DNA from: Candidatus Undinarchaeota archaeon
GTDB lineage: Archaea > Undinarchaeota > Undinarchaeia > Undinarchaeales > UBA543
DNA: 35,439 bases
Reading direction: 5' to 3'
Assembly: GCA_964636545.1 (NCBI GenBank)
Contig: CAZWSR010000007.1
Coordinates: 10,170 to 45,608, forward strand
This document shows positions 4,260 through 32,796 of this stretch, one piece after another. The position numbers and the translations under genes are program-made. Positions within the stretch are counted from its first letter, which is position 1, and every line of letters starts with the position of its first letter. The notes under the pieces were generated by a model, which saw only the letters and a program-made list of their open reading frames with translations, was not told the DNA's origin and did not search any database.

Positions 4260-4337
4260 TTTTTCAGGCAGTAGGTGGTAGGTACTAGGCAGTGGGTTAA
4301 CCTACTACCCACTACCTACTGCCCAATGCCTGGAAAA
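4260..4337. repeat. Family A palindromic heptamer element
   Basis: ttttc aggcagt aggtggt aggtact aggcagt ggg ttaa cct actaccc actacct actgccc aatgcct ggaaaa; imperfect inverted repeat centred on ggttaacc. Confidence 0.9.
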
Positions 4338-4576: not shown

Positions 4577-4592
4577 TAGTTTGTGAGATTGG

Positions 4593-4658
4593 TTCAGAAT
4601 TTAGAGTTTTGATTTTGGAATTTAGAGTTGATTCCAAACTCTAAACTCCAAATTCTAA
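4593..4658. repeat. Family B palindromic heptamer element between convergent genes
   Basis: ttcagaa tttagag ttttgat tttggaa tttagag ttga ttccaaa ctctaaa ctccaaa ttctaa. Confidence 0.9.
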
Positions 4659-5525
4659 CTATCGTTTCGCCTTTCCGCCGTTAATAACAAACATCCTAGG
4701 GTAAGGGATTTCTATTCTGCGCTTTCTGAATTCTTTTTTAATTGCGTAGCGTAAATCAGACGGAGTTTTCTTTATAAAATGAGCATTTGGTATCCATGCA
4801 CGAAGTTCTAATTTTACTCCAGAATCACCAAAATCATCAATAACAATATCTGGAGCAGGATCTTTCATAACTTCTTTATTCTTTTTTGCAACATCAATCA
4901 GTGCTTTCTTTGCTTTGTCTAAATCAGTCTCATAACTAACACTTACATCAACTTTTACTCTGATTTTTGGATCTTTCTTTGAGTAATTGATTATCTGTGA
5001 CTCTGCAACCAGATTGTTTGGCAAAATTATTAAATTATTATCAAAAGTTTTCAAATGTGTGCTTCTAAGTCCAATATCGTATAATCTTCCTGTTAAGTCC
5101 CCGATTTTTACCATATCTCCAATCTTGAATGGCTCATCAAGGAATATTGAAATTCCTGCAAATACATTTGAAAGTGAATCTCTTAGTGCGAAACCAAGAA
5201 CAATACCAAGTATTCCAGCTGAAGTCAGCATTGGCATAAGAATTCCTTGTATTCCTAAACTTGGTAGAATTATCAAAAGCGCAGCAACATATACAACTCC
5301 CTTTACTATAATCTCAGAAAGCTCAAGAACAGTTGGTTCAATATGCCCTTTCATGTGTTTGCGCATTAATCCACTAATACCTTTTACTAGAAAATGCGCT
5401 GCAGCTAATATGAGAACAACAATTCCAATTTTGATTGACCATTGAAACCATACTTGAGTTGTTGCAGTTACAGTGCTTAGGAATGTTTCGAACATTATTA
5501 TCAATTTTGCATAATCATCTAGCAT
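4659..5525 (-). CDS. mscS: Small-conductance mechanosensitive channel
   Basis: Three TM helices, GFALRDSLSNVFAG, PFKIGD, IGLRST, IPYP. Confidence 0.92.
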   Translation of the reverse strand: MLDDYAKLIIMFETFLSTVTATTQVWFQWSIKIGIVVLILAAAHFLVKGISGLMRKHMKGHIEPTVLELSEIIVKGVVYVAALLIILPSLGIQGILMPMLTSAGILGIVLGFALRDSLSNVFAGISIFLDEPFKIGDMVKIGDLTGRLYDIGLRSTHLKTFDNNLIILPNNLVAESQIINYSKKDPKIRVKVDVSVSYETDLDKAKKALIDVAKKNKEVMKDPAPDIVIDDFGDSGVKLELRAWIPNAHFIKKTPSDLRYAIKKEFRKRRIEIPYPRMFVINGGKAKR

Positions 5526-5559: not shown

Positions 5560-5626
5560 TGGCAGGAGGCATTGGGCACTAGGCAGTAGCCCTCATCTAC
5601 TACCCACTGCCTACTACCTACTGCCT
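5560..5626. repeat. Family A palindromic heptamer element
   Basis: ggcagg aggcatt gggcact aggcagt ag ccctcat ct actaccc actgcct actacct actgcct. Confidence 0.9.
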
Positions 5627-5634
5627 TTAACCAA

Positions 5635-6471
5635 ATGAACCAACTACTATTCGGCACCGCTGGTGTCCCAATAAGCTCAACAAAGAGCGATAGTGCTTCA
5701 GCACTTGAAAAAGTCAAGGAGCTTGGGCTGGGCTGTATGGAATTGGAGTTTGTGCGCGGAGTACGAATGGGCGAAGCAACAGCTAAAACAGTTGCTGAAA
5801 ATCAAAAGAAAACTGGAATTGTCTTGTCAGCACATGCTCCGTATTACATTAATTTAAATTCTCAAACTCCTGAAAAGCAGAAAGCCTCAATCAATCGTAT
5901 ATTAAAAACAGCAAGAATCGCAAATATTTGTGGGGCCAAGACATTTACATTCCATGCTGGTTTTTTCATGGGACAAGAACCAGCAAAAGTTTATGAAAAA
6001 ATCAAAATAGAGTTGAAAAGCATTGTCAAAACTTTGCGAGATGAAGGAAATAAGATCCTTGTCAGGCCAGAAACAACTGGAAAACTAACTCAATTTTCTG
6101 GATTAGAAGACCTTTGCATGATTTCTCAAGAACTTTCTGGAGTGCTTCCTTGTGTTGATTTTGCTCATTTGCATGCAAGAACTGGTGGGAAAGATAATAC
6201 TACTACAGAATTCAGAACAATGCTTGAAGTATTAGAGAAAACACTTGGCCGCAAAGTATTGGACAACATGCACATCCACATGTCTGGAATAAATTATACT
6301 GCAAAAGGAGAGCGGAACCATCTGGTTTTGGAAGAATCAGATTTCAAATGGAGAGAACTTTTGAAAGTTTGGAAAGAGTTCAATATTAAAGGAATTGTTA
6401 TTTCAGAAAGTCCGAATATTGAAGAGGATGCGTTATTGATGCAAAACTTCTATAAATCATTAAAACCTTAA
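5635..6471 (+). CDS. nfo: Endonuclease IV (AP endonuclease family 2)
   Basis: SAHAPYYINL, FHAG, RPETTG, CVDFAH, HIHMSG, GERNH and ISESP metal-ligand motifs. Confidence 0.9.
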   Translation: MNQLLFGTAGVPISSTKSDSASALEKVKELGLGCMELEFVRGVRMGEATAKTVAENQKKTGIVLSAHAPYYINLNSQTPEKQKASINRILKTARIANICGAKTFTFHAGFFMGQEPAKVYEKIKIELKSIVKTLRDEGNKILVRPETTGKLTQFSGLEDLCMISQELSGVLPCVDFAHLHARTGGKDNTTTEFRTMLEVLEKTLGRKVLDNMHIHMSGINYTAKGERNHLVLEESDFKWRELLKVWKEFNIKGIVISESPNIEEDALLMQNFYKSLKP

Positions 6472-6479
6472 TATTTTCC

Positions 6480-7319
6480 ATGGGTCTTGGAAAGATTATT
6501 CACAAATTCATTCATTATGATGGCAAATCAGTTCTAATTGACGAGGAAACTGATCTTCATGGTACTTTCTACTCTCCTAAAAAACTAGAAGCAAATGATG
6601 TTGGAGTTATAATCTGTCACGGACTTACGCTTTTCCGCAAATTATTTGAGCCAATGGCAAAAGTAATTCGCAATCGCGGTTTTGACGTACTCACTATGAC
6701 TTTCCGCGGCCATGGTTTGAGTCGTTTTGGCAAAAACAAGCAGCTTCGTAAACTAACATTAGAAAATGCATTGGAAGATGTTAAGCACAGTATAAATTTC
6801 ATGCAAAATCCTGAAGAGAAGTATAAATTGCGTTCTCACAAGAAAGTTATACTGGTCGGCCACAGTTTAGGGGCATTAATGTCCCTAAAAGCATCCATTT
6901 GTGATAATGTTAAACAAGATATTGTTGGTGTTGTTCTTGTTGGCTGTCCAATAAAACTTGCAGATTATAAATTTCGGACAGCTGCAATATTTGGTGCTGC
7001 AAAGTTTCTTGCAAATGTTGATTTTTCAGAAGTTCGCAAGCAGCTTAAAAATTTTGATGCAATGGTTGACATCGAAAAAGTAGATCTTCCAACAATAATG
7101 ATTTATGGAAAACTTGATGAACTCTTGTTATTATATCAAAAAAAGCCAGAGTTACTAGAAAAAGCAATCAACGACGTTAATTCTGATGTTGACTTTGAAA
7201 CAATTGATGGTATGTTCCATAACTCAATTAATTTATTGCACAAATTAGGTGTGAAGACTTCTGTGGAAAAGTGTCATAAGCTTATTGCTGATTGGATTGA
7301 AAAACACGCTAAAAATTAA
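6480..7319 (+). CDS. Alpha/beta hydrolase
   Basis: ICHG, FRGHG, nucleophile elbow GHSLG, G-x-x-D and C-terminal His (MFH). Confidence 0.88.
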   Translation: MGLGKIIHKFIHYDGKSVLIDEETDLHGTFYSPKKLEANDVGVIICHGLTLFRKLFEPMAKVIRNRGFDVLTMTFRGHGLSRFGKNKQLRKLTLENALEDVKHSINFMQNPEEKYKLRSHKKVILVGHSLGALMSLKASICDNVKQDIVGVVLVGCPIKLADYKFRTAAIFGAAKFLANVDFSEVRKQLKNFDAMVDIEKVDLPTIMIYGKLDELLLLYQKKPELLEKAINDVNSDVDFETIDGMFHNSINLLHKLGVKTSVEKCHKLIADWIEKHAKN

Positions 7320-7381
7320 CCTTTAATAGAAATTAGTGGTTTAACTTTAACAACTTTCTTCGCAATACCAGCATTGTGCAC
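7316..7381 (-). pseudogene. Displaced duplicate of the rtcB 3' end (HNAGIAKKVVKVKPLISIKG*)
   Basis: 32-bp identity between 7338-7369 and 7521-7552, with mostly synonymous divergence on either side. Confidence 0.9.
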
Positions 7382-7434
7382 CCCATCGCCGCTGATATTT
7401 GAATTGGTGAAATTTGTTAATTGGTTCTTGAGTG

Positions 7435-7494
7435 GACGCCCGGCGAGTGCGTCACGTCGTGGGGTGTTCGCTCACTTTGTTCGCTCAACCCCAC
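7435..7494. repeat. GC-rich REP-like hairpin insert between the two rtcB tails
   Basis: gacgc/gcgtc stem (7435-7453); gtggggt/accccac stem (7459-7494) enclosing gttcgctca twice. Confidence 0.75.
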
Positions 7495-7498
7495 ATAG

Positions 7499-8941
7499 TT
7501 ATCCTTTTATGCTTATGAGAGGTTTAACTTTAACAACTTTCTTCGCAATACCCGACTCATGCATCACATTTACAACTTCAGTAACGTCCTTGTAAGCACC
7601 AGGTGCTTCCTCAGAAACTCCAGCTTTTGAATGTCCTTTAATTATAATTCCTTTTTGTTCAAGTTCCTTGATAATTGTCTCGCCCCAGAACTGTTTTTTG
7701 GCCTGCACTCTGCTCATCACCCTTCCAGCTCCATGACAAGCACTTCCAAAAGTGTCATCCATTCCTTTTTGCGTTCCATGCAAAATATAAGAACAAGTTC
7801 CCATTGTTCCGCCAACTAGAACTGGCTGACCTACTGAGCGGTATTTCTCTGGAACTTCATCTCGTCCAGGTCCAAAAGCTCTAGTTGCTCCTTTTCTGTG
7901 AACAAGCAATTCTTTTCCATCATGTTTCTCCAGCTTGCAAGTATTATGACCAATTTCATAGAAAGTTTCAACATCTTCATCAGCTGTTCCGAAAACAGTA
8001 TTGAATCCTTTTCTTGTTAAATGCGCTAATGCCTGTCTGTTTGCAAATGCACAATTAATTCCCGCATTAACTGCACTGAAATATTTCTGTCCTTCCTCAC
8101 TTTGGAAAGGTGCGCACACAAGTTCTTTTTCCTTAATTGGGATATTGTATTTTCTGCTAGCTTTTTCCAATTCTACAATATAATCAGTTCCAATTTGATG
8201 TCCAAGCGCTCTGCTTCCGCAGTGAATTGAAACCAAAATCTGGTCTTTCTCCAGCCCATAAACTTTTGCAGCTTCTTCATCAAAAATTTCATCAACATAT
8301 TGCACTTCAAGATAATGATTTCCAGAGCCAAGTGTTCCAATCTGCTTAAACTGTCTCTGCTTAGCTGTTTTAGAAACATTTTCTGGACTTGCACCTGCTA
8401 CTTTTCCATTTTCTTCAATAAATTCAAGATCAGATTTGATTCCATAACCTTGTTCCATTGCAAATTCTGCACCTTTTACAAGAACTTCATCAATTTGTTC
8501 CTCTGTTAGTTTAATATCGCCAGTTGAACCAAGTCCAGCTGGAACACTTTGGAATAATGCTTCTGCCAATAGTTTCTTTTTCTGATTAACATCTTTTTTA
8601 GCAACAGTTGTTTTTAGTGTTCGTACTCCACAATTAATATCATAACCCACACCAGCAACACTAATCACCCCTTCTTTAACATCAAAAGAGCCTACTCCAC
8701 CAATTGGAAAACCATATCCTGGATGAATATCAGGCATTGCTAAACTAGCTTTCTGAATCCCTGGCAAACAAGCAACATTGTAAACCTGCTTGAGAGCATG
8801 CCATTCTTTTCCAGCTTTAACATCATCTTCAAGATGCTTGATTATTTCAGCATCTCCATAAATCCTACCTGGCACTAGCATGTCGCCATTCTTTGACATT
8901 TCCCAAATATGTTCTTCTGTTTTGTTTAATGTTAAATCCAT
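7499..8941 (-). CDS. rtcB: RNA-splicing ligase RtcB
   Basis: MPDIHPGYGFPIG, GYDINCG, GSGNHYLE, HCGSR, HRKGAT, HGAGR, EEAPGAYKD; start set at the ATG overlapping the archease stop (TAATG). Confidence 0.97.
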   Translation of the reverse strand: MDLTLNKTEEHIWEMSKNGDMLVPGRIYGDAEIIKHLEDDVKAGKEWHALKQVYNVACLPGIQKASLAMPDIHPGYGFPIGGVGSFDVKEGVISVAGVGYDINCGVRTLKTTVAKKDVNQKKKLLAEALFQSVPAGLGSTGDIKLTEEQIDEVLVKGAEFAMEQGYGIKSDLEFIEENGKVAGASPENVSKTAKQRQFKQIGTLGSGNHYLEVQYVDEIFDEEAAKVYGLEKDQILVSIHCGSRALGHQIGTDYIVELEKASRKYNIPIKEKELVCAPFQSEEGQKYFSAVNAGINCAFANRQALAHLTRKGFNTVFGTADEDVETFYEIGHNTCKLEKHDGKELLVHRKGATRAFGPGRDEVPEKYRSVGQPVLVGGTMGTCSYILHGTQKGMDDTFGSACHGAGRVMSRVQAKKQFWGETIIKELEQKGIIIKGHSKAGVSEEAPGAYKDVTEVVNVMHESGIAKKVVKVKPLISIKG

Positions 8942-9393
8942 TACACATCCACCACACATTGAATCTGATGTTTTTCATCTTCAAATTCATACTTAAGTCC
9001 ATGAAGAGTAGCTCCCTTCGCCTCGGTTTTGGTCTGGTGCTTTTCTTGATTAATTGTTTCTCCAAAAGCTTTTCCAGTTAATGTATATTTTTCAATCGGC
9101 GCCCCGGTGCCCCCGAGCTCCTGAGTCCCCTTTGTTATTTTCACTTCAAACTTAGCAAAAACCATTTCACTAATACTCATATCAGCAAGCAAGCGATTCA
9201 AAAATTCCACAAATAACATTTCAATTGAATCTGCTTCACAATGAACATCAACACTTTCAGTTGTCCCAACTTTTTCTAAATCAACCATAACACTAAACAT
9301 TGCCATAGCACCTTCTTGAAAAGCTTCCTCTAGAGTTGCGCCAATTCCTTTCACGCCAATATCTGCTTCATGCTCTAAAAGTTCGTATGTCAT
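8941..9393 (-). CDS. Archease (RtcB cofactor)
   Basis: YELLEHEADIG, KGATLHGL and C-terminal VVDV; adjacent to rtcB; start moved to MTYELL. Confidence 0.93.
   Translation of the reverse strand: MTYELLEHEADIGVKGIGATLEEAFQEGAMAMFSVMVDLEKVGTTESVDVHCEADSIEMLFVEFLNRLLADMSISEMVFAKFEVKITKGTQELGGTGAPIEKYTLTGKAFGETINQEKHQTKTEAKGATLHGLKYEFEDEKHQIQCVVDV
9097..9130. repeat. Family F GC-rich ~8-bp-periodic repeat, in frame in archease
   Basis: cggcgccc cggtgccc c cgagctcc tgagtccc, encoding GTQELGGTGAP. Confidence 0.7.
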
Positions 9394-9445
9394 GGCATTT
9401 TCTAGCATCTCAACCTTTAAATAACCTTTTTCCCTACCCAAAATT

Positions 9446-27601: not shown

Positions 27602-27677
27602 GCCTTGATAGCTCAGTCGGTAGAGCGCTACCTTGGTAAGGTAGAGGTCGGGAGTTCAATTCTCCCTCAAGGCTCCA
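27602..27677 (+). tRNA. tRNA-Thr(GGU), intronless, genomically encoded CCA
   Basis: Acceptor GCCUUGA/UCAAGGC, D arm GCUC/GAGC, anticodon arm CUACC-UUGGUAA-GGUAG, T loop UUCAAUU, U73-CCA. Confidence 0.97.
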
Positions 27678-32709: not shown

Positions 32710-32780
32710 TCAGAGTTTGGAATTTAGATTTTAGAATTCAGAATCTAATCCAAATTCCAAAATCTAAACTCTAAATTCCG
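32710..32780. repeat. Family B palindromic heptamer element
   Basis: tcagag tttggaa tttagat tttagaa ttcagaa tcta atccaaa ttccaaa atctaaa ctctaaa ttccg. Confidence 0.9.
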
Positions 32781-32796
32781 CATAAATATCAAAAAA

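Follow-up and report, generated by a model that had tools for sequence, protein, structure and literature searches.

The excerpts of PMC13626634 on which we draw describe how prophage e14 occupies the Escherichia coli gene icd: the gene extends into the insert and a displaced fragment (icdC) lies at the far end; most of the changes between the two icd ends are conservative or synonymous, and a hybrid gene is restored when they recombine. We identified a far smaller arrangement of similar anatomy at the end of the RNA ligase gene rtcB in a 35,439-nucleotide (nt) stretch of DNA, hereafter the window, from a Candidatus Undinarchaeota archaeon (assembly GCA_964636545.1, contig CAZWSR010000007.1, positions 10,170 to 45,608 of the forward strand). 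As those excerpts present icd with e14 or phage 21, and perhaps also in rtcB, the insert supplies a replacement 3' end and the original end remains untranslated beyond it. Prophage e14 is ~15 kb long and has its own site-specific recombination system, whereas the rtcB insert is 112 nt long, contains no gene and is a truncated copy of a dispersed repeat, and no integrase was detected in the three genomes of the genus.

Other described systems resemble parts of the locus. Enterobacterial repetitive intergenic consensus sequences or intergenic repeat units (ERIC/IRU) and Correia-type elements are small non-autonomous intergenic repeats. Homology-facilitated illegitimate recombination, as outlined for transformable bacteria in excerpts of PMC3240628, lets foreign DNA in by homologous pairing at one side and illegitimate joining at the opposite one. 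Our narrow literature search returned nothing relevant on such elements in DPANN archaea or on long duplications made by non-autonomous prokaryotic elements.

The duplicated end of rtcB

Hereafter, G000 is the window's own genome, and G001 and G002 are congeners in the same genus. In the window, rtcB and a convergent hydrolase gene meet at a junction with the following features:

6480-7319, plus strand: convergent alpha/beta-hydrolase gene (Pfam Hydrolase_4 and Abhydrolase_1); its stop overlaps the stop of the orphan tail
7316-7386, minus strand: orphan rtcB tail, untranslated, reading DGVHNAGIAKKVVKVKPLISIKG and a stop; core at 7338-7369; probably the original end of the gene
7499-8959, minus strand: rtcB coding sequence from the open reading frame (ORF) list, 486 amino acids; it matches the whole Pfam RtcB profile (positions 1-426 of 426, E 2.2e-166)
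7499-7569, minus strand: live tail copy (last 23 codons and stop) from the repeat-pair listing; synonymous sites unusually far from the congeners
7521-7552, minus strand: identical 32-nt core of the live copy, equal to 7338-7369 in the orphan; proposed crossover or conversion segment

The protein ends in HESGIAKKVVKVKPLISIKG (a longer stretch of the same end reads NVMHESGIAKKVVKVKPLISIKG), and the Pfam match reaches the final profile residue, indicating an intact RtcB domain. An archease gene (8944-9441) adjoins rtcB upstream. The repeat search of the window returned the two tails as a direct repeat of 71 nt with 79% identity and a spacing of 183 nt, and the score of the flank-against-flank local alignment was reached by none of 300 shuffles. 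Outside the core the tails are spelled differently: the PLISIKG codons are CCT CTC ATA AGC ATA AAA GGA in the live copy and CCA CTA ATT TCT ATT AAA GGT in the orphan, and all eight differences, including AGC for TCT, are synonymous. The orphan stop (7316-7318, minus strand) and the hydrolase stop (7317-7319, plus strand) overlap in TTAA. Between the tails lie 112 nt (7387-7498) with a guanine-plus-cytosine (GC) content of 47-51%, compared with ~30-40% nearby, and with a 7-bp hairpin of the GGGGT/ACCCC type.

An earlier note, made from the letters of the window, had described this tail duplicated 183 bp downstream, with its 32-bp identical core and recoded PLISIKG codons, and the sequence, the repeat search and an independent contig all bear it out. 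Its description of the DNA between the copies as ~118 bp of GC-rich hairpin DNA needs correction in part: hairpins are present and the DNA is moderately rich in GC (0.47-0.51), but the length is 112 nt and the overall folding energy is unexceptional (z -0.34 and -0.89).

The independent contig, a metagenome assembly of 1811 nt (L042), equals window positions 9052-7242 with two mismatches, at 8689 and 8699, and carries both tails and the spacer. The window stretch is present in 20 public runs from 15 studies; none of these is listed as an RNA run, which is uninformative about expression. Logan unitigs from four runs of four studies match it without variant letters over 6900-7367, 7340-7502, 7338-7435, 7406-7552 and 7521-8000, and their depth over the spacer is close to that of the flanks. 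The orphan is joined to the element in unitigs of three of the four runs, from three studies (7340-7423, 7340-7502 and 7338-7435). All of these unitigs, built with k = 31, end inside the 32-nt core; taken alone, they prove each junction and not the order of the pieces, and would look the same for the integrated form and for an empty site accompanied by a 183-nt circle. The cores are spanned only by the two longer assemblies.

A chimera in which two strains were joined via the 32-nt repeat would suit a metagenome-assembled genome whose unitigs break at the core. However, L042 spans both tails with only two distant mismatches, the orphan-element junction recurs across three studies, the spacer is covered about as deeply as its flanks, and no full second rtcB allele exists, since the rtcB similarity of the orphan ends after 23 codons. 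Because the independent contig and the unitigs of four runs from four studies reproduce the junctions, we consider a chimera, named in the earlier note as one finding that would undo its interpretation, excluded for practical purposes. The tail duplication is confirmed, and it is probably fixed in a widely sampled marine or hydrothermal species. A 60-nt unitig from run X3 (depth 2) matches 7473-7502 and has 30 differing letters left of 7473; it could stem from a variant lineage whose spacer differs, or be erroneous.

The repeat family of the spacer

Positions 7391-7435 recur on five other contigs of G000, with 100% identity over 45 nt on contig C6 and over 43 nt on C5. Alignment of the recurring places delimited a repeat of ~140-190 nt, with a non-coding family unit of roughly 140 nt. 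In the sense of the upstream gene, the family has a 5' arm (CGAACCAATTTCTACAGAATTG...), a helix P2 (AAGCCCC/GGGGCTT) that encloses a variable hairpin, a hairpin P3 and a conserved 3' arm (...AAGAACCAATTAACAAATTTCACCAATTCAAATATCAGCRGAG), and RNAalifold predicts three helices for it. The parts of the spacer, in the order in which they follow rtcB, are:

7493-7498, minus strand: CTATGT linker, read from the sequence
7461-7492, minus strand: GC-rich hairpin, a GGGGT...ACCCC stem around a tandem TGAGCGAAC, at the place of variable helix P2
7435-7453, minus strand: hairpin GACGC-loop-GCGTC, counterpart of covarying helix P3
7385-7434, minus strand: conserved 3' arm of the repeat family, from alignment to model R1

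Model R1 of the family matches the window at 7385-7523 with 44.3 bits (E 1.5e-9), whereas the five other G000 copies score 143-167 bits. The window copy has kept the 3' arm, its counterparts of P3 and P2 differ in sequence, and the 5' arm is missing, with CTATGT and the live rtcB tail in its place. Judged from this alignment, the spacer is a 5'-truncated, divergent copy of a genus-specific repeat. The stretch 7461-7498 has no other copy elsewhere in the G000 genome. A likeness between the native tail and the 5' arm of the element (AACCA..ATTTCTA) had an E value of 0.6 and was taken as chance.

The family fold is supported by covariation. In a covariance-model alignment of all 18 copies, 86.5% of cells pair and 13 of the 27 pairs have changed on both sides; none of 500 shuffles reaches any of the five measures used, and slid controls score far lower. 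Mismatch cells on the gene-sense strand are more often A.C (25) than G.U (12). If the fold functions in RNA, the strand concerned may be antisense relative to the neighbouring genes; otherwise the constraint may be one on DNA. We found no Rfam match to the spacer or to five full copies at gathering or permissive thresholds. Over the whole window Rfam reported only a tRNA elsewhere, with chance-level hits in 7250-7650, and ARAGORN only a tRNA-Thr at 27602. The family is new to Rfam, restricted to one genus, supported by covariation, and located exactly between stop and start codons.

The 18 copies found with model R1 (six in G000, eleven in G001, one in G002) occupy 18 different sites, and none of 38 other relatives carries a copy. 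The flanks of 10 of the 11 G001 copies can be placed in G000, and none falls at a G000 copy site. A search with the 3' arm pattern gave no match in viral contigs and matched only G001 among genome contigs. The five full G000 copies lie mostly beside housekeeping genes (GatD, class-I aminoacyl-tRNA synthetase (aaRS), ArgRS and a tRNA, FtsZ, and an aminotransferase with a 2-hydroxyacid dehydrogenase); none of the 10 neighbouring proteins scanned belongs to an integrase or transposase family, all being housekeeping or uncharacterised. Searches of the three genus genomes, which are 78-83% complete, returned no RVT_1 (PF00078), Phage_integrase (PF00589), TnpB zinc ribbon, Y1_Tnp or DDE_Tnp_1 in any of them; a control search with RVT_1 was positive in 3 of 14 known genomes.

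When the two flanks of each of the 18 copies were aligned with one another, significant direct repeats abutting the element appeared at five, and in all five the downstream repeat copy begins at the 3' end of the element:

G000 C7 (the window): rtcB tail, 71 nt
G000 C5: class-I aaRS tail, 31 nt, 24 identical
G001 C8a: 3' end of tRNA-Gln(CTG), 27 nt, to ~45 nt by eye
G001 C5: non-coding, 66 nt
G001 C8c: non-coding, 30 nt

The orthologous G000 sites of the two non-coding G001 cases hold a single repeat copy and no element, and by hand count the two G001 copies flanking the element resemble one another more than they do the G000 orthologue. Empty sites also exist in G001 for the G000 copies on C2 and C5. 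Comparison with the empty C2 site places the element between 5-nt AATGA repeats where G001 has a single overlapping stop and start (AATGA), so that both the aminotransferase stop and the start of the next gene are restored. Twelve of the 18 copies gave no significant flanking repeat in the alignment; C2 is one of them, its 5-nt repeat having come from this separate comparison. From the sites compared, long flanking duplications are a trait of the family, tied to the arrival of the element, and not a system specific to rtcB.

Several sites show further detail. At G000 C5 (L046 ~1470-1500 and 1643-1673), the last 10 aaRS codons, DAEKPGILVE and stop, recur after a full repeat as GPEKPGVLVE and stop, with six of nine differences at third codon positions. 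In G001, a family copy (L044 1501-1638, minus strand) lies 20 nt after tRNA-Gln(CTG) and is followed by a decayed duplicate of the tRNA 3' end, with 7 mismatches to the live copy in 27 positions; the orthologous G000 tRNA (C1:121688-121761) has the 3' end of the G001 live copy and no element. The G000 C2 element exactly fills the space between two codons, a stop and a start, that share ATGA in G001. In four copies (L050 ~1640-1650, which is G000 C2; L059 and L058 in G001; L045 in G002), the 3' end of the element (...CAGCGGAGA/T) either overlaps the ATG of the following gene or stops 0-1 nt short of it, which positions the GGAG of the element like a ribosome-binding site. The genes that follow encode a 2-hydroxyacid dehydrogenase, a zinc-ribbon TFS-like protein, a ~500-aa ORF and a 267-aa ORF.

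Origin of the two tails

Third codon positions over rtcB agree between G000 and G001 at 0.676 and between G000 and G002 at 0.616. Measured against these values the live tail is unusually diverged, sharing 8 of 24 third positions with G001 (P = 0.0006) and 11 of 24 with G002, whereas the orphan is ordinary (13 and 18 of 24). Eight is the lowest count among all 23-codon windows of rtcB (mean 15.5). Nucleotide identity between the G000 and G001 genes is ~85% throughout and falls only in the last ~45 nt; in this comparison no breakpoint could be placed further upstream. For one serine the live tail uses AGC, where each of the six relatives compared uses TCN. Residues that do not vary among relatives are all retained by the orphan, except for V to G and M to V beside the junction. 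Codon comparison thus shows that the live tail, and not the orphan, is the unusual copy.

The orphan is probably the original end of the gene, as the earlier note had proposed from the TTAA overlap. Its third-position identity to the congeners is typical, and G001, which has no insert, shows the same geometry, with overlapping stops of rtcB and a convergent hydrolase-fold gene. The expectation of comparable rtcB tail duplications in other genomes found no echo, none of the eight related rtcB loci examined besides the window's own having a second tail. The suggestion that the live tail came from another lineage fared better: we also consider this origin probable, and the atypical divergence of the live tail is as expected from it, although no donor emerged from the contig searches, in which the core 32-mer had no hits in viral or genome contigs and a 24-mer of the live tail none in genome contigs.

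Counted by codon position (first, second and third), the live and orphan tails differ at 5, 2 and 9 sites in rtcB and at 2, 1 and 6 in the aaRS gene; combined, these counts depart from an even spread (7:3:15, chi-square P = 0.011). The pattern is that of two alleles, each of which would have evolved as coding sequence, and not that of a duplicate decaying in place. The core is also distinctive. A 32-nt identical run within a 71-nt window of at most 80% identity occurred in none of 1172 rtcB windows between G000 and G001 and in none of 1391 between G000 and G002. Since no such run is seen between orthologues, the core is special and would be either the site of a crossover or a patch produced by conversion.

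Insertion of a member of the repeat family very probably displaced the rtcB tail, a point on which import and simple target duplication agree. As to how, we give about even credence to the import of a replacement tail together with the element by recombination through the core, with the native tail left as the orphan. We favour import because of the diverged live tail, the ordinary orphan, the codon-position skew and the special core, and we also count for it that the adjoining element copy is itself atypical for G000, as its low score against model R1 indicates. On this account, a small non-coding cassette, made up of a replacement tail for rtcB and, attached to it, a 5'-truncated copy of the ~140-nt genus-specific repeat, would have recombined into the very end of rtcB. 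The gene would now end in an imported, synonymously re-spelled tail, and the original 23 codons would have been pushed 183 nt downstream, untranslated and still overlapping the hydrolase stop. The exchange would most likely have used the 32-nt stretch identical in both copies, either by a single crossover of a small circle or by two crossovers with DNA from a lineage already carrying the insertion. Either route would yield the anatomy B-O-P' ... P-O-B', as for e14 in icd, with an insert that has no integrase or gene. We infer both the crossover in the core and the agent, which may be host homologous recombination or a so far unseen recombinase.

Several observations weigh against import. The codon-position skew is not significant for rtcB alone (P = 0.10), and all tail statistics come from 24 codons of rtcB and 11 of the aaRS gene. 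Neither viral nor genome contigs yielded a donor lineage with the live tail or the unique hairpin, and no recombinase, reverse transcriptase or transposase family was found in the three genus genomes. Non-coding sites, at which a replacement end would serve nothing, have long flanking repeats as well; this fits plain target-site duplication. The tRNA-Gln orphan of G001 is a decayed copy, and its live copy equals the G000 orthologue. Also, the pre-core part of the orphan matches G002 at 6 of 6 third positions (hand count). This fits an entirely native orphan better than a P-O-P' patch from a single donor, so that a donor with the duplication already in place, or later conversion of the core, would be needed.

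The strongest competitor is a plain, long target-site duplication without a foreign tail, which we judge possible but rather unlikely. A family member would have transposed into the rtcB-hydrolase junction with breaks staggered by ~70 nt; the final 23 codons and the stop would by chance have been part of the duplicated stretch, which let rtcB survive, and the copies would have diverged in place. Such an event would account for direct repeats of 27-71 nt abutting the element at 5 of 18 copies and the 5-nt AATGA at a sixth, with non-coding targets and a tRNA end among them, and for the single-copy empty sites in congeners. It also agrees with the conserved 3' end of the element and the 5' truncation of the window copy, with the hand count in which the two copies at a non-coding site are closer to one another than to their G000 orthologue, and with the decayed appearance of the tRNA-Gln orphan. 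But a neutral orphan should change at all codon positions, whereas the differences are skewed to the third, and this orphan retains its conserved residues except for the two beside the junction. Moreover, the copy under selection is the more diverged of the two (8 of 24 against 13 of 24 third positions shared with G001), the 32 identical bases are flanked by ~38% divergence in a way unmatched in orthologue comparisons, and TCT to AGC requires three changes through non-serine codons.

Two further explanations find less room. A larger integrase-bearing element could have left the locus as its scar: a provirus, plasmid or island whose attP lay within an rtcB 3' end that it carried would have integrated site-specifically and later shrunk to 112 nt. 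We regard this as improbable. Archaeal integrative elements reportedly use protein-coding genes. The anatomy is indeed that of attL and attR, namely an identical core together with a gene end that is apparently replaced, like that of icd with e14 in the excerpts of PMC13626634. However, the DNA left between the tails belongs to a dispersed repeat family and is no island remnant, the family's flanking duplications at unrelated targets are unexplained by one att specificity, Phage_integrase was found in none of the three genomes, and the core 32-mer has no hits in viral contigs. The longer alleles with cargo that the earlier note envisaged were not seen in the one metagenome contig found or in the four runs. 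Of its proposal of a scar left by an element targeting rtcB, what stands is that an inserted element lies between the copies; a larger element, cargo and targeting of rtcB are unsupported, the repeat family being present at unrelated sites too. Less probable still is an element acting at the RNA level, in which the insert and one tail copy would be excised like an intron from rtcB mRNA at a bulge-helix-bulge motif. The covariation-supported family fold, with double changes in 13 of 27 pairs unmatched in 500 shuffles, would be in keeping with a function in RNA, but we found no bulge-helix-bulge motif with cuts 183 nt apart (relaxed motifs numbered 77, against ~52 in shuffles), the live tail has its own stop and makes splicing unneeded, and no Rfam family matches.

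Comparison with known systems and other features of the window

Measured against e14-type integration, the rtcB locus has flanking direct repeats with an identical core (7338-7369 and 7521-7552), but it lacks an encoded recombinase, and the family occupies 18 sites instead of a single target. The family resembles MITEs, the miniature transposable elements with inverted repeats, in being multi-copy, non-coding, ~140 nt long, intergenic and folded, with sites and numbers that vary between close relatives and with target duplications. It departs from them in having no terminal inverted repeats, only an inverted match of 11-13 nt that forms helix P1 and lies subterminally, 14-22 nt from the ends (P at most 0.05 in 6 of 13 copies tested, out of 18). 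It also differs in its duplication lengths, which are 5, 27, 30, 31, 66 and 71 nt and not short and fixed, and in that no transposase of the three families tested was found in the three genomes. Short and long interspersed nuclear elements (SINEs and LINEs), with their target-primed insertion, are suggested by the conserved 3' end, the 5'-truncated window copy, the variable and sometimes long target duplications and the lack of terminal inverted repeats; unlike them, the family has no A-rich or simple-repeat tail, and RVT_1 was found in none of the three genomes. SINE- or LINE-type elements are not known in archaea. Homology-facilitated illegitimate recombination could add a foreign tail and an element beside a native tail and is thus a possible route of import, but, as far as the excerpts of PMC3240628 go, it is described for bacteria and alone does not predict an identical core flanked by diverged segments, and no donor was found here.

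More broadly, we tentatively propose, as an idea we think more doubtful than probable, that DPANN archaea hold a so far undescribed class of integrase-less mini-cassettes, each composed of a folded element of ~100-150 nt and a short, re-spelled conserved gene end. These would spread between lineages by recombining at the gene end, or would insert with very long target duplications, and could colonise extremely compact genomes while leaving essential genes unbroken; in some copies, the gene that follows would even take its ribosome-binding site and start codon from the element. If import is correct, an essential RNA ligase gene of a small symbiotic archaeon has been end-swapped by a gene-less 183-nt cassette, a minimal form of the prophage strategy of bringing one's own gene end and a concrete marker of DNA exchange between DPANN lineages. 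The mobile-element mechanism indicated is either insertion with very long target duplications or homology-guided insertion, with no enzyme for it known in these genomes. The repeat family deserves study at the family level.

The G000 hydrolase shares 70% amino acid identity with its G002 neighbour counterpart and 32% with that of G001, while rtcB itself is nearer to G001 (85% nucleotide identity) than to G002 (80%). By this comparison, the downstream neighbour of rtcB is replaced or strongly diverged in one lineage. The G001 rtcB is split over two contig ends (C12 and C17; L012 and L039) that overlap by 24 nt near codon 409-416, an assembly break ~70 codons before the end of the gene.

The window contains other repeats. 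Runs of a 14-nt periodic motif (CTACTACCCACTGCCT-like) at 4266-4331 and 5583-5640 are inverted relative to each other and flank a 288-aa ORF (4659-5525). A second dispersed repeat (AATCTAAACTCCAAAATCTAAATTCTGAACTCC-like) occurs at 276-310, 4580-4663 and 32713-32795 and includes a 79-nt inverted pair with 80% complementarity, 28 kb apart.

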